Shown: piece after piece, positions 4,503 through 59,995 of the stretch
Layout of the letters: each line of letters begins with the position of its first letter
How positions within the stretch are numbered: the stretch's first letter is position 1
IMG/VR virus record: IMGVR_UViG_3300020123_000219
Coordinates: 24,199-88,198 of that record
Length of the DNA: 64,000 nt
DNA from: a virus
Direction: 5' to 3' (one strand)
Translations under genes and position numbers: made by a program
Notes under the pieces: generated by a model
What the model was told of the DNA's origin: nothing
Seen by the model: only the letters and a program-made list of their open reading frames with translations
Databases searched by the model: none

Positions 4503-7500
4503 TCACCACGCCAGCGTGTTCAGGCCGTTGAGCAGCCCCAGCGTCGTGCTGCCCAGCTGCAGCGCCGCCGCCTCAGGCGCGTTGTCGATGATGCAGGTCA
4601 CGGACGCTGACACCTCGCCTTTCACCCCGAACGCCCAGCGGCGCTGGGTCTGCGTCACCCGCCCTGTGATGGAGATGACCGGGTTCCCCGCCCCGAACGG
4701 CCTGCGGTTCACCGTCACCAGGTCACCCACCGACACCCCGAGAACGAACCGCCACCGGAACGGGGACGCCTGCGCCGTCACGGTCACGTGGTTGAGCCGC
4801 AGGTCCGGCGCCGCGTACGTGTTCGCGAGCCAGTTCGCGAGGTCGAGCAGACCGGGGCCGTAGTTCAGCGCGACCCTGGTGTCGCCGTTCAGGTAGCCGG
4901 TGGCGAAGTTCGTGACGCAGCCGTACTGCTTCTGCGAGGCGTCGACCAGCGCCGTGTCGGCGGGCACGACATCGTCCTGCGTGTCGAGCTGGGTGAGCTG
5001 GATCTCGTTCTGGATGCGGGTCAGGTCGTAGTCGAACGAGATGTCCGGCTCGTAGTGGAACTCCCCGGCGAAAGATTCCTCTCCTAGCACCCACTGCACT
5101 GCCTGGTTCCAGGCAGCCTGCCTGGAAAGCGACACCAGGTCACCGGTCGGCGCAACGTAGAACATGCCGGGCAGCACGGCCTGCGCGATGTTGCTGACCG
5201 ACTGCGACGTTGGCTCTCCCGGTATGTCCTGGCAGGACACGACCGGGGTGACGTAAATGCCGCCCTGCTTGCCGATGGCCCTGCGGCCCGGCGCGTTGTC
5301 GCCGCCCTGCAGCAGCCGCTCGATCCGGTTCTGCGACGGCTCGCCCGCCAGCCCGGTCAGGCCGGCCTTGTAATGGGTCAGGATTCTCTGCTGCGGGAGC
5401 AGGAACGGGAACACCGCGAGCTGGCCGGTGCTGCCGTTGAAATTCAGGCTGCTGATCCCCGCCGCGTTCGAGGTCCCGTTCAGCCAGATGAACGAGAAGT
5501 CCTGCGGAAGGTGCGGAGATCCCCACGACCCGGACCCGGCCTGCTGGCCGTTCAGGTACACGGTCCACGCGGTCCTGTTGAACGTGATCACGACCTGGGT
5601 CATCGGCGGGGTGCCAGGCGTCAGCGTGTACACCGTCGACCCGATCGTGGTCAGGCTTGCCCCGTTATGCCAGGACATGTGCAGGCCCGCCGACAAGGTG
5701 TCGGCGTAAAAGCCGAAGATCTGCCCGGCCGTGTTCCCCACCGTCATCAGCGACGGCTGCTGGAGGCTGAACGGGCTCTGCATCTGGAACCAGAACTCGA
5801 TGGACACCCCGCCCGCTATCGGCGGGAACGTGCTGGTGGAAGCCACGAGGGTGTACCCGCTGTTCGCGCTGAGCGCGCCGACGTTCGTCAGCTGCCACAT
5901 GCCCTCGCCGACCGTGACCCGGAACGTCGGGTTGATCAGCAGCGTCGACGAGGTCCCGACCAGCGTGGTCGCGGGGGTGCTCCCGAACTGCTGCTGGATT
6001 CCGCCGGCCCCGTATTTCGACTGCGTCACCGTCAGCGGCACGTTGCTGCCCTGCGCGAGGTTCGCTGCCGCTGACGCTCCCTGCGCGTCCGCGCACGGCC
6101 AGTAGTGAGACGGGTTGTCGTGCAGGACCTCGGTGGACATGATCGGCTGCGGCTCGCAGTTCATCGCGAACCACGCGTCGGTGACCGTGGCCTCGGTGAA
6201 ACCCCGGTACGTCTCGTCCCACTGCTGCGGCAGCCGCTCGATGTTCCCCGAGTACGGCAGGTACCACGGGGTGGCCCACGGCGGTCCCAGCGGGTCGGGC
6301 TTCCACTGCCCCGTCACGGTCACGGTCGCGCCGTTCGCGGCGGTCCACGGCACCGCCGGGGGAAGCAGCAGCCAGCCGGGCACGGACGGGTACGGCGCGG
6401 ACGCAGCCCGGAACGCGGCGTTGACCGGCGGTATCCCGTTGGCCTGGACCGTGATCACCGCCTGCACCGTGCCTGACGGGGCGATGCCGGTGACGATCGC
6501 CAGCGTCGCAAGGGGGCTGGTCACCGGAGCGGACGCCGCTGTCCCGAGCGGGGTGCCGCTCCCGTTCTGGAACGTGATCACCAGCGACACTCCCGCTGCC
6601 CACGGCACCGAGCACGCGAGCCACGCCGGGAACGAGTACGTGGCCCCGGCGGTCGCTGGGATGGTCACCGATCCCTGCGCCTGAGGGTTCGCCGTGAAGC
6701 CGTTCCCGGTGAACGACACCTGCCACGACCCGCCGGTCCACGCGGTCCGCAGCCGTACCGGGGTGCCCGCGTTGATGCCGGCCAGCGACCCGGACCCGGG
6801 CGGCAGGAACGACCCGGTCGGGTTGTCGAACAGCAGCGTTCCCTCGCCCGTGGACAGCTGCGCCGTCTCGTACTGCCTGCCCTGCGTGATCTCCAGCGCC
6901 ATCGACGCGGTCGTCACCGGCACCCACGTCATGTTGTCGGGCATCGTCTGGAACCCGGAGCCGGGCGCCATCTCGAAGTACGTCACCGGCCAGTTCGACA
7001 GCGGCCTGGCCGGCGCGGCTGCCGCGCACAGCATCCCCCCGAGCCCGACCGCGAAGTTCACCGTGCCCGTCGAGTTCCACGTCGCCGAGCACGCCGTCGT
7101 GGTGTACTGCCATGCGGCCGAGCACTGGATGTCAGCGGAGTCGTCCACGCCGTTGCTGCCGGTCACGGTCGCCACCGGGGACCACAGGCCGCCGGGCGCG
7201 AGGGTGACCGTGTCGGTCAGGTTGTCCGACGCGGCCACGGTGACCGCGAACTGCTGGCTCACCGGGGCGGGCAGGCTCCCTGTGATGGCGGTGACTGAGT
7301 TCCCGAAGCCCGTGGCTGCCATGGTGTTCACCCACGGAGCCATGTTGGCCACGTTCCAGATGATCGCCGCGAATGCGGTGGTGTAGCTGTTCGGGGCCAC
7401 GAACACCGTGGTCTGCGGCGGCAGCCCGGAGTCTTTCGGCGGCGCGGTAACCCTGGCAGCCGGGGCACGCCACACGGAGCACCGGACCAGGCCCTGGTCC

Positions 7501-24057: not shown

Positions 24058-24231
24058 TTAAACATCACCTCCCTGCGCACGGGAAGTAATGTCCCGTGCG
24101 TAAGCGCAGTCCTGCACTCTCACGCACTAGCCTCCATATGATGTGACCGGCAGTGGCATTCATCGCCGGCGCAGCGGAAAACGACGCAGCCTCCGTGCGG
24201 GCAGCGGTCGCAGTGATAAACAGACCTCAGG

Positions 24232-33254: not shown

Positions 33255-35075
33255 TTAGCCTGCGGTCCCCCACGGCCCGTCGGACATGTAGTCCTCCGGA
33301 ACCCCGTGCTCGGTGAAAGCCTTGCAGGTAGCCGGGCGGACCTCGGCCATGCGTGCCTTCAGCCGATCCGTCCCGCTCTCGGCGAGCCACGGCCACGGCA
33401 CGGTCTTGCCCGCCTGCAGCGCCGTGATCAGCCGGAACGCCGCGTCAGTCAGGCCGCCGAACGTGTGCCGGTTCGACCCGCCCGACGGCAGCGCCCCGGT
33501 CTTGTACCCGGCGAAGTTCCACATGTACACCGGGACGGTCTTCGGGATCAGGTCATCGATCAGGGTCTCGCTCATGCTGTTCGCCGCGATGCTGCGCCCG
33601 TACTGGATGCAGTTCGACGGAAGCCACCCCGGCCGGGTCTGCTCGTCAGTCAGGATCACGACCTCCGTGTGGTACGGCTTCAGGTGATCCCGCACCGCCG
33701 CCGGGATATCAGTCCCGCCCGGAGCGGGCTTCACGGAGAACTTCTCCATGATCTTCAGCACCGACTCGCCCTTCCCGAACGGCACCGGCTTCGAATGCGC
33801 CCAGAACTCCGCCAGGTCCGCGTTATCCGCCCGCACCGCCAGCGCGGCGCCGAACAGCGCAGCAGCATCCGCCCAGTCCATGTCCGAATGCTCCGTCATC
33901 TTGTACGCCCACATCGACGGGGACCGGTCCACCAGGACCAGCGGGCGCCGCAGCGGAGTCACGTTCGCCAGCGACGCGTCCAGCGCCTTCTCCAGCGGCC
34001 ACGCCCACCGCAGCGACGGCGCGTTCCTGTACGCAAGCCAGAACGCGAACGGGAACTCACCCGACCGCGCGACCGCCTCCGGGTCGGCCAGACGGGCAGC
34101 CACCTTCGCGGCGACCGCGTCCGAGATCCCGGCCCGGTCGAAGTTCGCGAGGTTCCGCCGCAGTGCCATGTACGGCATCGACGGGATCGCCGCCTCCCAC
34201 TTCCCGGCAGTCATCTCGCCATGCGACGCGGCCCGCTCCCACGTCATCCCCGCCTTCTTAGCCGACTCAGCCGTGATCTTCGACGGATCGCGCATCAGCC
34301 GCTTGTTCTGCCGCAGAACCCGCAGCACTGCCGGGATCTCCGCGTCCTGGTCGTGGCGCCGCGCGATCAGGTACTTCCACAGCACCGCACGGTACGCCGG
34401 GTCGCCCTCGCAGCCCGGAGCGTGATGCCCCAGCGCGCCGCACAGGTAGCACGTGCCGCGAGACGTGGCGTTGTACCGCGCGTTGACGATCTCGATCACG
34501 TCACCGAACCGGACCGCAGCCGACGGAGTATCGTACTTCGCGACCGCGTACTCCGTGTACAGGCGCGGCAGCGCATCGGCGATGCCGCGCTTCAGGCCCT
34601 TCGGCATGGTGTTCCGGCCGTACTTGGTGATCCAGTACGCGATCAGCTCGCCTGGCTCGTCACCGCGCTGCAGGACAGCGTCGGTCACCTTCCGGACCGT
34701 CCACTCCTGAGGGTCGGCGCGGTAACGTGCCTCTTCCTTGCGTGCCTGCGCGAACTCGGCTGCGCCGTACACCGGCCCGAGCCGCAGGTTCCCGCCATCG
34801 CGTGCCCGCAGGTAGTTCAGCAGGCCACCGGCCCAGTCAGGGTCCGTGCTGGCGTTCGCGCGCACCAGCTCCGTCCACCGGGCCACCCGGGCGTCCTTGC
34901 CCTCGTGCAGGGTCTTTTCGTCCGGCATGTAGCACGACGCCAGCACGTACAGCTCTGACTTCAGGTCCCGCAGGTAGCCCTGCGCGCCCAGTGCGGTCTT
35001 CGCGTCCGGCGCAGCCTCGGAGAAGACCGGCGACGACGGCAGGGTCGTGACCCTGCCCCTGTTGTACCGCGACAT
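33255..35075 (-). CDS. rsr: Ro60/Rsr TROVE-domain RNA-binding protein
   Basis: YLRARDGGNLR, RGDEPGE, KGLKRGIADA, YAVAKYD, MTWE, MPYMALRRNLANF, PFAFWLAY; vWA LVDRSPSM, GGTD, ILTDEQ. Confidence 0.92.
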   Translation of the reverse strand: MSRYNRGRVTTLPSSPVFSEAAPDAKTALGAQGYLRDLKSELYVLASCYMPDEKTLHEGKDARVARWTELVRANASTDPDWAGGLLNYLRARDGGNLRLGPVYGAAEFAQARKEEARYRADPQEWTVRKVTDAVLQRGDEPGELIAYWITKYGRNTMPKGLKRGIADALPRLYTEYAVAKYDTPSAAVRFGDVIEIVNARYNATSRGTCYLCGALGHHAPGCEGDPAYRAVLWKYLIARRHDQDAEIPAVLRVLRQNKRLMRDPSKITAESAKKAGMTWERAASHGEMTAGKWEAAIPSMPYMALRRNLANFDRAGISDAVAAKVAARLADPEAVARSGEFPFAFWLAYRNAPSLRWAWPLEKALDASLANVTPLRRPLVLVDRSPSMWAYKMTEHSDMDWADAAALFGAALAVRADNADLAEFWAHSKPVPFGKGESVLKIMEKFSVKPAPGGTDIPAAVRDHLKPYHTEVVILTDEQTRPGWLPSNCIQYGRSIAANSMSETLIDDLIPKTVPVYMWNFAGYKTGALPSGGSNRHTFGGLTDAAFRLITALQAGKTVPWPWLAESGTDRLKARMAEVRPATCKAFTEHGVPEDYMSDGPWGTAG

Positions 35076-35076
35076 G

Positions 35077-35109
35077 AAAAAGTCCTCCTCGCGTCAGCGG
35101 CGGGAGGAC
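35077..35109 (-). terminator. terminator-like hairpin that contains the Ro60 RBS
   Basis: GTCCTCC...GAGGAGGAC-TTTTT-C-ATG. Confidence 0.6.
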
Positions 35110-35114
35110 GTGCA

Positions 35115-35283
35115 TCAGGTGACCGCGCCCGACAAGAAATGCCGGAAGACATATCAAGGACGGGACTCGAACCCGCGACCTCTACCTGCGTAGGGTAGCG
35201 CTCTTCCAACTGAGCTACCAGCACCGAATGGTGTGCTGTTATTGAAGGAACTCCCGGCGGGCACCCCGGGCGCGGTCATCTGA
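35115..35283 (-). ncRNA. Y RNA (YrlA-like) with tRNA-like module
   Basis: Terminal stem with CCGGGGTGC/TTGTCGG; internal D, anticodon and T arms; adjacent to Ro60. Confidence 0.85.
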
Positions 35284-35291
35284 AGTTATGT

Positions 35292-35377
35292 CCCCTCACC
35301 GACAACAATCGGGAAGCGGCTGTGGTTTCCACTGCGAAGGTGAGAAGTAACCGCTGCCCAGCACCCCGGTGACGGGG
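35292..35377 (-). ncRNA. second, short Y RNA without tRNA module
   Basis: Same CCGGGGTGC, GTTNCTTC and TTGTCGG motifs in a closed stem. Confidence 0.75.
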
Positions 35378-35390
35378 TAGAACGAAAACT

Positions 35391-35419
35391 ACCCTACATT
35401 GGGGAGTGCCGTTATGCAA
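35391..35419 (-). promoter_or_regulatory. sigma70/HrdB-type promoter for the Y RNA-Ro60 unit
   Basis: TTGCAT-N17-TAGGGT just upstream of the short Y RNA. Confidence 0.65.
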
Positions 35420-40965: not shown

Positions 40966-42938
40966 CTGGCTCCTGCAAGCTCGCGCTCGCGGTTCTCCAG
41001 CCTGCGCAGGTACTCGACCGCGTGTCCCGCATACCCCTCATGTGAGGCAGATATGACAGTGTTGAGAGTCTTGTCGGAGATGTACCTGTTTTCCCATGTT
41101 TGCGGGTCTCTGCCCTTGTTAACATGCCTGCGCAGCGCCGCCAGCTCCGCAGCCTTCGCAGCCGGGCTCGCGGCAGGCTTCCGCCGGGCACCCGAGGACA
41201 TCGCGTGCCCAGGTGCTTCCTGCGCCGGCTGGGGCGGGCGCACTGTATTCATGGGCCGCTGCGGGTTCCCGCCGCCGCCCGGCACGATCCCCGCCAGCGC
41301 CGCGTCGCCCGCCGCCGCCTGCTGCCCGGCAGCCTGGCCCTGAGCCGTCCCCGGCATCGCGGCAAGAGGCACCAGCCCCGACGAAGTAGCCCACACCGGC
41401 TCGCGCGTGAGGTCCAGGTCCCAAGGATCATGTCCGGTTTCCTGGCGCAGCTCGTCGATGGACAGGCCGCCGTGCTCCAGCCTGTTGATCAGGTCGGCCG
41501 TGAGGGACGCCGCGTCCTGCTCCTCCTCGATCCCTTCCCACCGCCACGCCATGTCGTCCTGCTTCAGGACGTTCTGGATCACGTGGTTGAAAATCGACGC
41601 CAGCCACTTCAGGTCCGGCAGCGTCGCCTTCCGCTGATGGATGTTCTGCGTCTGCTGCGAGAACATGCGGATCGACGCAGTCGACACCGTCGGCCCGATC
41701 TGCGGGATGATCCCCAGCTCGGTAGGCATCACCGAGTCGCCCATGCACACCTCCGTCATCAGCGTGGTATCATCCTCGCCCGCCAGCGCCGGGGGCTTCT
41801 GCGGAGACACCTTCGACCCGGGCGGCAGCACGAGAAGCTTGTGCTTCCACGCCTGATCCCCCGCGATCACGTTCAGGTTCTCCTGAAGCTCCCGGATCTG
41901 GTTCGGCGTGAAGCTAGGGTCACCCGGCGAGATGAACATCCCCGGGATCGTGCCCTCAGTGAAGAACTCAAGCTGGTACTGCTGCTTCCGCAAATGCGCC
42001 ATCGCAGGAATGATGACCCGCTCCAGCGGGGACTGGCCGTACACCGTCCACGACCGGGGCCAGCGCGGCATGTACATCAGCTGGTCGCCACGGTACTGCT
42101 TCAGCGGCGCGTCCATGTCCTTCTGGTCGTCGCCCATGAGCAGCGTCATCAGGTCAACCCGGGGCACCCCGTACGCGTACACCTGGTAGGCCGGGTTCGG
42201 GGGGCGTGGCTTCGCGCCCCGAAGGTCGATCAGCGGGCGGACGATCGTGCCGTCCAGCAGCTGCATCTCGGTCAGGTCCGAACCGAGAACGCCCTTCCCC
42301 GGCAGCCGGGACGGCATCAGGTACACCGACAGGGCATCGACCACGAAAATGTCTTCGAGGACCGCCGACATCCACGACCCGAAATCCTGGTAGTTCGAGT
42401 CAGGGTGGCGGAAGAACTTCATCAGCTCAGCACGGCGCTCCGCGAAATCCCGCATCCCCTTCTTGTCGCCGTGCAGCGACTTCCCGGCCTCTTTCGTGGG
42501 AACGATGTCCCATTCGATGCCGGTGATCTCGTCCTTGCGGAGCTGGATGCACGCCCGCGCCACCGAGTACAGGTCAGAGTAAAGGCGGAGCGTGGCAAAG
42601 TCGCACAGCTTCAGGCCCTCGGTGCCCGGCTGCCCGATCGGCAGGTTCCACGCCTGCGGGTACTGCCACCTGCGCGGCTCAGGCCGCTCGAACCCCGGCC
42701 TCGGGGCGTCGATCGGAGTGGGCGGCAGCGGGGTCAGCGGAGCGAACGCCCCCGTCACGAATGCGGACGGGTCACGCGGAAGCGCCGCATAGGCCGTCTG
42801 GCCCATGCTCCACTGCTGGTAGGACGCCAGAAGCGGTGACACCGACGAGCCGAAAGGCTGCCCGCCCCGCGAGGTCAGCGCTGCTGACCTCGCCGCAGCG
42901 CCAGCAGCAATCGCGCCTGCGCGGCTACGAGGAGCCAA
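40962..42938 (-). CDS. portal protein
   Basis: VARACIQLR, LDGTIVRP, YGQSPLE, FFTEGTIP, SIDELRQETG. Confidence 0.9.
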   Translation of the reverse strand: MAPRSRAGAIAAGAAARSAALTSRGGQPFGSSVSPLLASYQQWSMGQTAYAALPRDPSAFVTGAFAPLTPLPPTPIDAPRPGFERPEPRRWQYPQAWNLPIGQPGTEGLKLCDFATLRLYSDLYSVARACIQLRKDEITGIEWDIVPTKEAGKSLHGDKKGMRDFAERRAELMKFFRHPDSNYQDFGSWMSAVLEDIFVVDALSVYLMPSRLPGKGVLGSDLTEMQLLDGTIVRPLIDLRGAKPRPPNPAYQVYAYGVPRVDLMTLLMGDDQKDMDAPLKQYRGDQLMYMPRWPRSWTVYGQSPLERVIIPAMAHLRKQQYQLEFFTEGTIPGMFISPGDPSFTPNQIRELQENLNVIAGDQAWKHKLLVLPPGSKVSPQKPPALAGEDDTTLMTEVCMGDSVMPTELGIIPQIGPTVSTASIRMFSQQTQNIHQRKATLPDLKWLASIFNHVIQNVLKQDDMAWRWEGIEEEQDAASLTADLINRLEHGGLSIDELRQETGHDPWDLDLTREPVWATSSGLVPLAAMPGTAQGQAAGQQAAAGDAALAGIVPGGGGNPQRPMNTVRPPQPAQEAPGHAMSSGARRKPAASPAAKAAELAALRRHVNKGRDPQTWENRYISDKTLNTVISASHEGYAGHAVEYLRRLENRERELAGAR

Positions 42939-43009
42939 TAACCTCCCGGACGACCAGCCAGATCATGGCCCTGACCATACCATTATGCCCCACAGCGGAA
43001 AAGCCGTCG

Positions 43010-51403: not shown

Positions 51404-51820
51404 TTATTCCACGTGCGCCCAGATCTTACGCTGGCGTATCAGGCGTATGTTCTTTTCGTCAACGCCGACCATTCTGGCGATTTGCCGGTGCGGCAAATCT
51501 GAGACGCGGATCTCCCTGACCAGTTGCGCTGTGAGCTTCGCCGCCCCGTTCTGCTCTCCCCTGACTACCTCGGTCTTCGATTTAGCCTTGTGGCAGGTCT
51601 CGCACAGGGCGCGGCATTTAGCCAGCTCGGCCTCGCGGCGGGCTTTCGACCATGACCAGACCACGTGGTGGACCTTGGTGGCCGGGTCGACGTGATCTAG
51701 TTCCAGGTCGTCCCATGAGCCGCAGAGCGCGCAAGGGCCGTTCTCGGCGAACCACTCGGCACGGCGAGCGGCCATCCACTGCCGCTGGTACTCGCGTTTC
51801 TTCTCTCCCGTGTAGCCCAT
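51404..51820 (-). CDS. HNH endonuclease with C-terminal HTH
   Basis: CALCG...LELDHVDP...CRALCETCH; RGEQNGAAKLT. Confidence 0.85.
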   Translation of the reverse strand: MGYTGEKKREYQRQWMAARRAEWFAENGPCALCGSWDDLELDHVDPATKVHHVVWSWSKARREAELAKCRALCETCHKAKSKTEVVRGEQNGAAKLTAQLVREIRVSDLPHRQIARMVGVDEKNIRLIRQRKIWAHVE

Positions 51821-52730: not shown

Positions 52731-52802
52731 AGGGGCTGACGGATTTCGAGACCGCGACCTCGGCGTTGGCAACGCCGCGCTCTGCCGCTGAGCTACAACC
52801 CC
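52731..52802 (-). tRNA. tRNA-Gly(GCC), atypical T loop
   Basis: Loop TTGCCAA; T loop CTCGAAA. Confidence 0.8.
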
Positions 52803-53977: not shown

Positions 53978-54049
53978 CGCCCCATGCCGGTGCCGACCCG
54001 GCTCCCTTCCGCTTACAGGGCGGTTGCGCTGCCGTTGCGCCAATGGGGC
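53978..54049 (-). tRNA. tRNA-Thr(TGT), non-canonical
   Basis: Loop CCTGTAA (C33); T loop GTCGGCA. Confidence 0.75.
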
Positions 54050-56865: not shown

Positions 56866-57558
56866 TCAGCCGCTGAGCCCGGCCATGAGGATCAGGTCGC
56901 GGGCCAGCTCGGCGGGGTCGGTGACGGAGTCGAACGCCATGACCTTGACGTGCTTAGGGTTGGCCTGCTCGGCTCCCTGATAGGACGCGAGGGTCTTGTC
57001 GTGGGCGTCGCCGTGGCCGACGACCGCGACCGCGAAGTACCGGTCCGGGTTCGCCGCCGACAGCACCCCCGCGAATTCCTGCCAGTCAGTGGCCTCCCCG
57101 TCAGTGCAGACCAGGCACAGCAGCACGGGCGGCTCGGTCTCGTCCCCGAACTCGGAGTTGAAGTCCGCGAGCGCTGCCTTCCACGCGGGCATGATCGTGG
57201 TCCCGCCGCCCCACCGGATGCCCTGCCACTTGCGGGCGAAGTTCGAGGAGTTGAAGTCCCCCAGCTCGGTGTGGACGCTGGAGAACCCGTGGACCAGCAG
57301 CCCGCCCATCTCGTCGGACCCGCCTGCCTGCTCGGCGGCGGCCTCGGAGTCCTCTTTCTCCAGGGCGGCGACGAACAGCGGCATGGCCTCGCCGACGACT
57401 TCGCGGCGGGGTATCCCGCTGCCCTCGGCTGCCTCCCAGTTCATCGAGTCGGAGGTGTCGAGCAGGCAGATGACTTCCTTGTTGCGCCACGCGGGCACGA
57501 GCGGCTTCTCCACTCGCGGTGCCTGCGACGGCAGCTGTGCCTCAGTCAAGAGGGGCAT
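56866..57558 (-). CDS. stand-alone vWA domain protein
   Basis: MIDAS LLDTSDSM, GGGT, TDGEATD. Confidence 0.85.
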   Translation of the reverse strand: MPLLTEAQLPSQAPRVEKPLVPAWRNKEVICLLDTSDSMNWEAAEGSGIPRREVVGEAMPLFVAALEKEDSEAAAEQAGGSDEMGGLLVHGFSSVHTELGDFNSSNFARKWQGIRWGGGTTIMPAWKAALADFNSEFGDETEPPVLLCLVCTDGEATDWQEFAGVLSAANPDRYFAVAVVGHGDAHDKTLASYQGAEQANPKHVKVMAFDSVTDPAELARDLILMAGLSG

Positions 57559-57759
57559 TCCTTTCCAGTTTGTTACGGCGGGGCCGGGCCGCACCCGTGA
57601 GCCAGCACGGGAACTAGCCCTGCTTGCAGATGCGCCTCGGCTGCTTCGCGGCCCGGCCCCTTAATACCCCGCCAGTCCCGGGGGACGGCGGGGAGCAATG
57701 AGGAAGATCCCGTTTGCGTATCCGGGTCTACCCGGGCCGATTGCGACCGGGATCTTCCG

Positions 57760-57831
57760 TGGAGCTGGCGGTGATTGAAACCGCGACATCCTGCATGCAA
57801 AGCAGGCACTCTGCCACTGAGTTACAGCCCC
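57760..57831 (-). tRNA. tRNA-Ala(TGC)
   Basis: G3:U70; loop TTTGCAT. Confidence 0.9.
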
Positions 57832-57907
57832 TTGATGCCGGCCTCTGCCATTGAGGTACCGCCCCGTGAGTGAAGCGGACGGGACTCGAACCCGCAACTT
57901 CCGGCCG
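57832..57907 (-). ncRNA. circularly permuted tRNA-like RNA with Ala identity
   Basis: 3' half (T arm, CCGCTTC-A) precedes 5' half (GGGGCGG, D arm); GCCGG/CCGGC closes the ends. Confidence 0.8.
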
Positions 57908-57979
57908 TGGAGCCAGGGTGAATCGGACACCCGACCTCTTCCGTGCGAAGGAAGCGCGCTGCCACTGCGCTATGGCCCC
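57908..57979 (-). tRNA. tRNA-Ala(CGC)
   Basis: G3:U70; loop TTCGCAC; T loop TCCGATT. Confidence 0.88.
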
Positions 57980-58229
57980 ATTTGCGCCTGCTGCCGCCTT
58001 TACCGTGTATACCGACATGGAGGGGGCGGCAGCAGGCGTCCCGTACCGTGCCCCCTACAGAAGAGGCGCGGGCCGGGAGTCTTGCTGTCCCGCCACGGCG
58101 TGTATACGCGGAGGCGGGACGTTTACACCGGATGTAAACGTTTACTTGCGGCGTTTACTCCGGTGTGGCTTTTCCGCTGTGGAGTTCTCAAGGTTCGGTC
58201 ACATTCCCCCCCGGAGGGGTGGTGATCCG

Positions 58230-58301
58230 CCCGGATGCCAGGAGTCGAACCTGGATTTGCCCGGTTTTGGAGACCGGGTGCCTAGCCGCTGGCTCATCCG
58301 A
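58230..58301 (-). tRNA. tRNA-Trp(CCA)
   Basis: Loop CTCCAAA. Confidence 0.85.
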
Positions 58302-59260: not shown

Positions 59261-59995
59261 GTCGAGGGGGAGGGCCTGCTGGTCGAGGCGGCGGGCTGCC
59301 TTCTCGCACTCGTTTTCGCTGATCTCGATGCCGATGGCTTTCATGCCGAGGGCGCGGGCGGTTTCGAGGGCGGAGCCTGATCCTGCGAAGGGGTCGATGA
59401 CGAGGCCGCCGGGGGGGCAGGCGTGGCGGAGGAGGGGGGCGAGGACGGCGACGGGTTTCTCGGAGGGGTGGATGCCGATGCGGTGCATGTTGCGGGCGCG
59501 GATGACGGTGACGGCTTGCCGGGCGTACCCGGTGTCGTAGGAGCTGGCGCCCCGGGCGCCGTGCTGCCCTGGTTCGAGCTGCCGGCGGGTGACGTTCTTG
59601 CGGGTGGCTCCGGCAAGTTCGGGTACCTTATGGTAGATTTCTGCCCATTTGCCGGTGTACCAGTGGGCTGCTTGCTCGTGGATGCGGTGGAACCGGCCGG
59701 GGGCGAATCCGGAGCCGTTCTGCTTTTCCCAGATGATGTCGTGGGAGAGCTTCCACCCGGCGGCGGCGTATTCACCGTGGCGGGTGAGGAAGAGGCGGAG
59801 CGACCCGAAGCACCACAGGGAGTTCGCGGCGGCTGAGGCAGCGTCTAGCCAGCCTTCAGGCCATTTGTCCCATTCGCGGGATGTTTCTTCGTAGGGCGGG
59901 TCGGTGATGACGCAGTCGGCTTTGAGGGCGGGGAGGATGTCGCGGCAGTCCCCGTGGTAGAGGGTGATGCCGTCGCCCTGCCAGTAGGGGGTCAC
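59237..59995 (-). CDS. N6-adenine/N4-cytosine DNA methyltransferase (beta class)
   Basis: LYHGDC, ITDPPY, HPSEKP, DPFAGSGS; GTG at 59995. Confidence 0.92.
   Translation of the reverse strand: MTPYWQGDGITLYHGDCRDILPALKADCVITDPPYEETSREWDKWPEGWLDAASAAANSLWCFGSLRLFLTRHGEYAAAGWKLSHDIIWEKQNGSGFAPGRFHRIHEQAAHWYTGKWAEIYHKVPELAGATRKNVTRRQLEPGQHGARGASSYDTGYARQAVTVIRARNMHRIGIHPSEKPVAVLAPLLRHACPPGGLVIDPFAGSGSALETARALGMKAIGIEISENECEKAARRLDQQALPLDLTPDQAL

Follow-up and report, generated by a model that had tools for sequence, protein, structure and literature searches.

What occupies the 76 nucleotides (nt) that separate two tRNA-Ala genes in the tRNA array of a soil phage? The locus lies in a stretch of 64,000 nt, called the window below, which comprises positions 24,199 to 88,198 of IMG/VR record IMGVR_UViG_3300020123_000219, that is, the final 64 kb of an 88-kb phage record that is 78% complete; the GC content of the window is 66.6%. 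ARAGORN finds 35 tRNA genes on the minus strand of the window between positions 43009 and 58301, and Rfam adds a few more. The spacing between tRNA genes in this array and in related arrays is typically 0–5 nt, with no comparable spacer. The element in question fills the entire spacer between tRNA-Ala(CGC) and tRNA-Ala(TGC), with a module that starts 2 nt past the former and stops 5 nt before the latter. Its sequence relationships indicate that it is probably a functional small-RNA gene, conserved and not a decaying scar, which encodes a stand-alone form of the tRNA-like module of YrlA-type Y RNAs, lacking their Ro60-binding handle.

Read on the minus strand, the element consists of a tRNA 3′ half, a short linker and the matching 5′ half. 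The preliminary description of this DNA, made from the letters alone, had parsed it in this way and had taken it for a circularly permuted tRNA without an anticodon; the parse holds letter for letter and the topology is that of the predicted fold. The minimum free energy (MFE) and centroid structures of the 76 nt are both a permuted cloverleaf in which 21 of 21 pairs form, including G2:U71 and G3:U70. This structure comprises a 5-bp closing helix, a 5-bp T arm, a 7-bp acceptor helix under a 6-nt loop and a 4-bp D arm, and all the nucleotides that build the elbow of a tRNA are present (U8, A14, G18, G19, A21, G46, a pyrimidine at 48, T54, T55, C56 and A58). The 3′ half precedes the 5′ half, and the strands of the acceptor and anticodon stems match. 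The element does not form a contiguous cloverleaf whose acceptor ends are free and whose anticodon loop has 7 nt, and the unrearranged interval is called neither by ARAGORN nor by the Rfam tRNA model (RF00005). When the two halves are swapped in silico, a check already proposed with the original parse, ARAGORN calls a tRNA. Genes of this kind are overlooked by tRNA finders, which leave apparently empty spacers in the annotation.

Folding energy is undistinctive in such GC-rich DNA (MFE z = −1.24), and a direct rearrangement control was therefore run. At every position of the 64-kb window, on both strands, a 3′ half, a linker of 0–12 nt and a 5′ half were rearranged and scored by ARAGORN. Among 1.66 million rearrangements, positive calls were obtained only at this element and at overlaps with real tRNAs or with a tRNA-like RNA adjacent to rsr, the gene of the phage Rsr/TROVE (Ro60) protein. 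The permuted tRNA shape is not due to chance.

Relatives of the phage were found via the portal protein, and further copies of the element via pattern scans of metagenomes and genomes. Syntenic arrays (Trp, Ala, Pro, Phe, Gly, Lys, Leu and others) are present in three portal relatives, G001 (an IMG/VR contig, 159.8 kb), G004 (97.9 kb) and L023 (25 kb). Most portal relatives have no array within reach, relatives reached through a nearby DNA methylase have no tRNAs, and the open reading frames (ORFs) inside the array are poorly conserved and unusable as anchors. A first strict pattern scan of viral contigs gave no match; matches to a pattern of the T loop and D arm were chance occurrences or ordinary tRNAs in 2 of 3 cases in IMG/VR, 9 of 12 in metagenomes and 2 of 3 in genomes. 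Among contigs from four soil DNA runs, every match was either a fragment of an unrelated tRNA or a piece without any difference from the window, so that neither variants nor ends were obtained.

The ortholog in G001 is 78 nt long: A73 of tRNA-Ala(CGC) is followed by CG, the module, 5 nt and tRNA-Ala(GGC). The copy at L062 is nearly identical to that of the window, and the next gene is again tRNA-Ala(GGC), while the copy at L063 has a non-canonical tRNA-Ala(UGC)-like gene upstream and tRNA-Pro next. All three are contigs of soil phages, and in each the element lies directly after an Ala-type tRNA and CG. In L070, a 265-kb contig binned as Actinomycetota, a module with a 58-nt insertion in its acceptor loop stands between tRNA-Phe and tRNA-Gly and scores 58.7 bits with our own model, and L023 contains a paralogous module flush between two tRNA-Pro genes.

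Pairing was counted in an alignment of five copies over 21 pairs, with slid-partner and 500-shuffle controls. In this alignment, 99% of the cells pair, as against 42–60% with slid partners; two-sided changes occur at 8 of the 21 pairs, and the observed values were reached by none of the 500 shuffles. At the third pair of the closing stem, the window and L062 have C:G, whereas G001 and L063 have G:C. In the T stem, the second pair changes from C:G to A:U in G001 and the third from G:C to C:G in L070. Acceptor pairs 2:71, 4:69 (G:C or C:G), 5:68 and 6:67 vary among the orthologs, and the whole acceptor helix of L070 is replaced by a different paired sequence. The D stem is unchanged across all five orthologs of this type. 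The variable-loop equivalent of L070 is parsed as AGTT, with a closing-stem strand shorter by one G. The loops that seal the acceptor stem differ (ACTCAC, ACGCATT and ACGCACGCAT), every one of them starting with A–C. Homologues therefore exist with covarying pairs in the acceptor, T and closing stems, the very conservation whose absence the preliminary description had regarded as speaking against a real element. Between the window and G001, identity is 82% in the element, 70–73% in the flanking tRNAs, 45% in the Trp–Ala spacer and 49% in the portal proteins.

These data bear on the possibility that the element is no more than a neutral scar, left by tandem duplication of a tRNA-Ala gene, in which the 3′ half of one copy is followed by the 5′ half of the next. 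Such duplications may occur in these arrays; a partial 5′ half that follows tRNA-Ala(TGC) in L070 looks like a decaying one, and after permutation the neighbouring tRNA-Ala(TGC) is 79% identical to the element. A scar, however, does not account for 21 intact pairs, for compensatory changes affecting three helices between phages with portal proteins 49% identical, or for conservation better than that of the flanking tRNAs, and this origin is considered very unlikely.

The closest known relationship of the conserved module is to YrlA, a resemblance that the preliminary description had pointed out and that is seen in the Rfam alignment, in blastn matches and with our model. The Rfam YrlA family (RF02553) aligns with the T arm, acceptor hairpin and D arm at 32 bits (E = 7.8e-5 in a 1-kb scan), and both cmscan and the MFE fold give the module order of YrlA, namely T arm, loop-closed acceptor stem and D arm on a stem. 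A blastn search with the 76 nt matched the RNA immediately upstream of the gene for a “Ro-like RNA binding protein” in Gordonia phage Cashline, the classical position of YrlA, as well as unannotated modules a few nt from tRNA genes in Microbacterium phages BAjuniper, Percival, Gretchen and Floof. The model built from five array copies (R1) scores the Cashline and Microbacterium modules and the full-length YrlA-like RNAs of G001 and G004 at 42–54 bits, where tRNA–tRNA junctions reach about 41 bits. Dimeric tRNAs have been warned of as false positives for YrlA (Chen et al. 2014, PMC4201824). At the present locus, the outermost helix pairs of the YrlA model do misfit, and its middle helix is matched only by the acceptor strands of both flanking tRNA genes; against a junction artefact, the flanking tRNAs are complete and the module is self-contained. 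The paralogous module of L023 matches positions 23–85 of the YrlA model, which correspond to the module alone.

Several points weigh against the reading of the element as a functional YrlA-type module. The phage is uncultured, and the element is known here from sequence alone. G004, the closest relative by portal protein (63%), has a structurally unrelated 113-nt spacer in the same slot; the element is missing from this phage and is therefore dispensable. The Rfam YrlA score of 32 bits compares with a gathering score of 69, and a scan at the gathering threshold gave no match. The YrlA model also gives tRNA–tRNA junctions 20–29 bits, so that its score is no proof alone. The 79% identity to the permuted neighbour stands against 74–75% for the YrlA modules, and ancestry is thus ambiguous. 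G3:U70 and A73, the marks of alanine identity, are absent from the copies that are not adjacent to tRNA-Ala (L070, L023, Percival and BAjuniper), in which position 3:70 is A:U (L070) or G:C or C:G (the other three); alanine identity thus characterises a single subgroup, for which there are only three distinct sequences. Finally, the small 6-nt acceptor loop may resist RNase P.

A YrlA-like module in a phage that encodes a TROVE protein (33255–35075, minus strand) raises the question of whether the element is a canonical Y RNA, bound by Ro60 and acting as a tether or gate. The topology of the module agrees with this, and in an unprocessed transcript the 3′ acceptor strand of tRNA-Ala(CGC) and the 5′ acceptor strand of tRNA-Ala(TGC) can pair and lengthen the closing stem. 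Nevertheless, a handle formed in this way would be made of two tRNA genes with full scores, which maturation will remove. Both flanks are complete tRNA genes, there is no long terminal Ro-binding helix, and no GNCGAAN0-1G motif was found in 57500–58300 on the minus strand. The rsr gene lies 22.8 kb off, with structured RNAs of its own beside it at 35115–35377. Orthologs or related modules also occur in genomes in which no TROVE/Rsr match was found, namely G001 (98% complete), BAjuniper and Percival; this is weak as an empty search, although two different queries agree. A Ro60-bound Y RNA is accordingly an improbable explanation. The lack of a handle, of a Ro motif and of rsr adjacency is the reason why the element is read as a handle-less YrlA-type head. 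The copy described here sits in a phage that does encode Ro60, yet the module appears to be independent of Ro in the relatives.

Just upstream of the TROVE gene (region 35100–35400), a tRNA-like RNA in normal order is encoded at 35152–35224 on the minus strand (Rfam tRNA, 45.6 bits); it has three mismatched acceptor pairs and the loop CUACGCA, and is enclosed by a long terminal helix of approximately GACCGCGCCCG / CGGGCGCGGTC. No YrlA match at E ≤ 1 was found in the region 35100–35400. This RNA shares its exact T arm (GCGGG TTCGAGT CCCGT CC) with the element, where it lies at 57879–57895. Full-length YrlA-like RNAs with long imperfect terminal helices are present in G001 (L049; G001:152845–152955, minus strand) and, as a pair about 0.9 kb past the end of the tRNA array, in G004 (L048; G004:59448–59560 and 59591–59694, minus strand), with Rfam YrlA scores of 49.6, 50.5 and 32.9 bits. 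In these phage genomes, no match was given by the TROVE model (G001) or by the Rsr protein of the window (G001 and G004).

The ends of the element fall at the sites where the neighbouring tRNAs are processed, as the preliminary description had supposed, and maturation of the neighbours would release it. All four Ala-type copies start 2 nt (CG) past the upstream discriminator and end 4–5 nt before G1 or C1 of the next tRNA. This conserved spacing, together with the linkage to an upstream Ala-type tRNA in all four copies and with the dispensability seen in G004, would also suit a structural spacer acting in cis, one that provides clean substrates for RNase Z and RNase P, or blocks mispairing of the near-identical tRNA-Ala acceptor strands, and has no function after release. 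But most tRNAs of these arrays stand 0–5 nt apart with no spacer of this kind. A mere spacer would have no use for the conserved tertiary nucleotides of the D and T loops, for G3:U70 or for A73–C74, its conservation above that of tRNAs would be surprising, and similar modules end tRNA clusters where no tRNA follows downstream (Percival). It is unlikely that the element is only such a spacer.

The alanine marks noted in the preliminary description, G3:U70 and A73, are indeed kept in all four Ala-adjacent copies (window, L062, G001 and L063), where G3:U70 is constant while the variable acceptor pairs listed above change around it. The element thus shows the identity set of tRNA-Ala, G3:U70 in a 7-bp acceptor helix with A73. 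Alanyl-tRNA synthetase (AlaRS) requires little beyond an acceptor helix with these features. A C at position 74 is encoded after A73 in four of the four Ala-type copies, and the acceptor stem is encoded sealed, that is, closed by a hairpin loop.

For such a sealed stem, a precedent exists in Mycobacterium smegmatis YrlA, which is cut by RNase P RNA in vitro and is found in vivo as two halves, one of them with an added CA that completes CCA; it is also the only one among the three YrlAs of the same study with a 7-bp acceptor stem (Chen et al. 2014, PMC4201824). Given the conservation of G3:U70, A73 and the encoded C74, nicking by RNase P, addition of CA and alanylation are plausible for the phage element. 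By analogy, nicking and CCA completion may take place, at a little under an even chance, and charging with alanine would be somewhat less probable again. A nicked product would plausibly be a two-piece RNA joined by 12 base pairs. No CCA-adding (PolyA_pol) domain was found in the 88-kb record, a weak negative given its completeness of 78%. The notion that each module copies the identity of its neighbour was also considered; it fits the Ala copies and, loosely, L023 (C1:G72), but fails for Percival, BAjuniper and L070 and was rejected.

It had further been proposed that the leftover ends of the element, if ligated, would form a 7-nt anticodon loop with the anticodon CAA and so yield an Ala-charged reader of UUG. 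ARAGORN does accept the rearranged sequence as tRNA(CAA), and the lead and tail add up to 7 nt in three of the four orthologs. The pseudo-anticodon, however, differs in each ortholog (CAA, CAC, CUU and UCC), for which reason the UUG-reader idea fails; the loop of L063 has 6 nt, position 37 is C, nucleotide 26 is missing and the joined termini restore no conserved functional anticodon loop. Nor is the lead CG a remnant of an anticodon loop, as had been suggested. It is the commonest trailer dinucleotide of the array tRNAs (20 of 33 in the window and 20 of 36 in G004) and is not special to the element, so that the lead and tail are the trailer and leader of the neighbours. The base after the discriminator is C in nearly all tRNAs (32/33 in the window, 33/33 in L047, 36/36 in L048, 30/30 in L023 and 18/18 in L063), while complete CCA is encoded by few (5/35 in the window); this near-universal C might serve as a processing signal or represent part of an encoded CCA. 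The 88-kb record gave no match to an RtcB or RNA-ligase domain, a negative that is likewise weak at 78% completeness. A true permuted tRNA gene, whose ends are ligated into a contiguous Ala-charged decoder, is the least probable of the alternatives weighed here. The array of the window had been noted to lack tRNA-Ala(GGC), which was proposed as an ancestor consumed in the origin of the element. The relatives contradict this: in G001 and L062, the gene that directly follows the element is an intact tRNA-Ala(GGC). The phage of the window seems merely to lack this gene.

Transfer-messenger RNA (tmRNA) was considered and rejected: the ARAGORN tmRNA search was negative, and the best Rfam match of this kind, cyano_tmRNA, reached 18 bits through the T arm only. 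The element shares with two-piece tmRNA a tRNA-like domain bearing G3:U70 and A73, but its 76 nt between two tRNAs hold neither a tag reading frame nor pseudoknots.

For the element as a handle-less YrlA-type module, the following course of events can be envisaged. It would be co-transcribed with the array of about 35 tRNA genes, as strand and spacing suggest, and released by the maturation of its neighbours, through 3′ processing of tRNA-Ala(CGC) 2 nt upstream and RNase P cleavage at G1 of the next tRNA 4–5 nt downstream; the conserved flush spacing points to this route. In silico, the released RNA is predicted to adopt the L shape of a tRNA body; the pairs of the cloverleaf and the nucleotides for tertiary contacts are present and conserved. 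A nick by RNase P in the acceptor loop, followed by completion to CCA, could then produce a two-piece RNA chargeable by AlaRS. Since there is no conserved anticodon, the RNA cannot decode. Most likely, it would act in trans, its likeness to a tRNA letting it engage, outside translation, a factor that recognises tRNAs; candidates are a decoy or sponge for a host protein or defence toxin that binds the acceptor end or elbow, or a ligand of the RNA-surveillance proteins of the phage. The preliminary description had named a two-piece alanylatable decoy as its other possibility. The fully specified version of this scheme is rather unlikely; in it, a Ro60-independent two-piece look-alike, immune to anticodon nucleases, is nicked by RNase P, trimmed to A73–C74, completed to CCA and charged by AlaRS of the host, and serves as a non-ribosomal alanine donor or as a decoy for host factors or defence toxins that attack the acceptor ends or elbows of tRNAs.

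Compared with YrlA (RF02553; M. smegmatis, PMC4201824, and structure preprint 10.1101/312249), the element has the same permuted order, stem to stem and without nucleotide 26, the same conserved nucleotides in the T and D loops, a 7-bp acceptor stem as in the M. smegmatis RNA, and a sequence directly similar to that of the Cashline YrlA, which lies next to a Ro-like gene. Unlike YrlA, it has no Ro60-binding helix or motif, is not beside rsr and scores below the Rfam threshold; it occupies a tRNA slot, with ends set by the processing of the neighbours, and its G3:U70 and A73 are absent from the YrlA consensus and from the full-length YrlA-like RNAs of the relatives. The modules of the Microbacterium phages stand likewise on a 5-bp stem a few nt from a tRNA gene, with no TROVE match in BAjuniper and Percival. 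They differ in having G3:C70 acceptors and nucleotide 26; Percival has a sealed hairpin of 9 positions with a 3-nt loop, BAjuniper has a tandem pair, and none of the modules is beside tRNA-Ala.

Two-piece tmRNA, encoded by permuted ssrA genes of alpha-proteobacteria and cyanobacteria, also has the T arm and 3′ acceptor strand first, followed by a loop and the 5′ strand, and combines G3:U70 and A73 with the absence of an anticodon. In addition to lacking the tag frame and pseudoknots, the element differs from it in the D arm, which has a normal 4-bp stem in place of the reduced D loop of tmRNA. Permuted tRNA genes are also known from Cyanidioschyzon merolae, from some green algae and from Thermofilum; in these, too, the 3′ half comes first, and the short linker between the acceptor ends is removed by RNase P and RNase Z. 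Their precursors are circularised at a bulge–helix–bulge by splicing endonuclease and ligase, which restores a decoding tRNA; the phage element, in its bacterial setting, has neither a conserved anticodon nor a bulge–helix–bulge junction. Species 1 and 2 of the T4 tRNA cluster (rnaC and rnaD) are stable non-decoding RNAs that are co-transcribed and co-processed with tRNAs and are larger; to our knowledge, they are not permuted tRNA bodies.

In the literature searched, no account was found of tRNA mimics, permuted or handle-less, within the tRNA arrays of phages, and no paper that pairs “permuted tRNA” with phage. The Rfam YrlA family and Chen et al. (2014, PMC4201824) contain only Ro-adjacent forms, and the paper on Ro60 of a Thermus phage does not treat tRNA-like RNAs. 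The unannotated modules of the cultured phages BAjuniper, Percival, Gretchen and Floof were found in this analysis, as was the L070 variant.

We know of no established function for the tRNA-like head of bacterial Y RNAs. In the arrays described here, the head stands alone in phage tRNA slots, without its Ro60 handle, and is conserved at least as well as the surrounding tRNAs, which suggests that it has an activity of its own that phages exploit. As the Ala-adjacent subgroup keeps the minimal recognition set of AlaRS, a charged, non-decoding tRNA mimic is a testable possibility, and the presence of related modules in cultured Microbacterium phages opens the question to ordinary experiments. The parts of the element, its neighbours and the Microbacterium modules are listed in Table 1.

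Table 1. Coordinates of the 76-nt element, its parts and flanking genes in the window, and of related modules in Microbacterium phages
Feature	Position	Strand	Basis or remark
Whole element, 76 nt, handle-less permuted tRNA mimic (probable reading)	57832–57907	minus	Fold; Rfam YrlA 32 bits; own model R1 92 bits; covarying orthologs
Lead CG	57906–57907	minus	Matches 3′ trailer (C74–G) of tRNA-Ala(CGC); CG lead in all orthologs
Closing (anticodon-stem-like) helix, 5′ strand GCCGG	57901–57905	minus	Paired with 57837–57841
Variable-loop equivalent AAGTT, with G46 and pyrimidine 48	57896–57900	minus	Identical in window, L062, G001 and L063
T arm GCGGG/TTCGAGT/CCCGT, with T54, T55, C56 and A58	57879–57895	minus	Fold
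Acceptor 3′ strand CCGCTTC (positions 66–72; U70, U71)	57872–57878	minus	Seven pairs with 57859–57865
A73 and linker CTCAC, loop sealing the acceptor stem	57866–57871	minus	C after A73 conserved
Acceptor 5′ strand GGGGCGG (positions 1–7, G3)	57859–57865	minus	Fold and ortholog alignment
U8–A9 and D arm CCTC/AATGGCA/GAGG (A14, G18, G19, A21; unusual C10:G25)	57842–57858	minus	Fold
Closing helix, 3′ strand CCGGC, abutting the D stem, without nucleotide 26 as in the YrlA model	57837–57841	minus	Fold; cmscan
Tail ATCAA, also 5′ leader of tRNA-Ala(TGC)	57832–57836	minus	Not conserved: ATCAA, ATCAC, ATCTT, ATTC
Upstream tRNA-Ala(CGC)	57908–57979	minus	ARAGORN; Rfam tRNA 62 bits
Downstream tRNA-Ala(TGC)	57760–57831	minus	ARAGORN; Rfam tRNA 63.5 bits
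Module of Microbacterium phage BAjuniper	OQ938582.1 41356–41424		Unannotated in record
Module of Microbacterium phage Percival	MH271308.1 46674–46734		Unannotated in record
Module of Microbacterium phage Gretchen			Unannotated in record
Module of Microbacterium phage Floof			Unannotated in record

Some further structures were seen in and around the related arrays. Between tRNA-Pro and tRNA-Asn, BAjuniper has a tandem of two permuted modules (L065:1430–1580; OQ938582.1 approximately 41285–41435), which are unannotated; the order is T arm, acceptor hairpin, D arm, small hairpin, T arm, acceptor hairpin and D arm, with one enclosing stem, and the first acceptor hairpin has G:U at 3:70. In L070 (reverse complement, 5285–5322), tRNA-Ala(TGC) is immediately followed by a degenerate partial 5′ half, TGACTGG TA CC...GG CCTGT, which could pair with the preceding 3′ half; this half is possibly a duplicate in decay or a stage in the emergence of permuted modules. 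The slot between tRNA-Ala(CGC) and tRNA-Ala(TGC) in G004 (L048; G004:67934–68046, minus strand) contains, within its 113 nt, two hairpins and a TATAAT box. Non-canonical tRNA-Ala-like genes, missed by ARAGORN with default settings, are found at L023:16734–16808 (plus strand) and in the reverse complement of L063 at 2464–2536. In both, a normal T arm and a 7-bp acceptor stem that bears G3:U70 and A73 are combined with a degenerate D region and a bulged anticodon stem of 7–8 bp, the loops being CCCGCAA and TTTGCAA.

The array of the window contains more than the 35 tRNA genes called by ARAGORN, since Rfam tRNA matches at 52731–52802 (53.5 bits) and 53978–54049 (44.1 bits), both on the minus strand, are passed over by that program. 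An HNH endonuclease ORF lies within the array (51404–51820, minus strand; Pfam HNH, E = 4.8e-5), and the tRNA clusters of BAjuniper and Percival are also flanked by HNH genes. Another conserved block follows tRNA-Trp (window approximately 58160–58228, minus strand) and is kept in all related arrays (L047, L062, L063, L023 and L070). It consists, in order, of CACCACCC, a short hairpin, GGGGGAATG and then CTTGAGAACTCCACAGCGG, the remainder of the spacer being unalignable; this block may be a regulatory element or a further small RNA.

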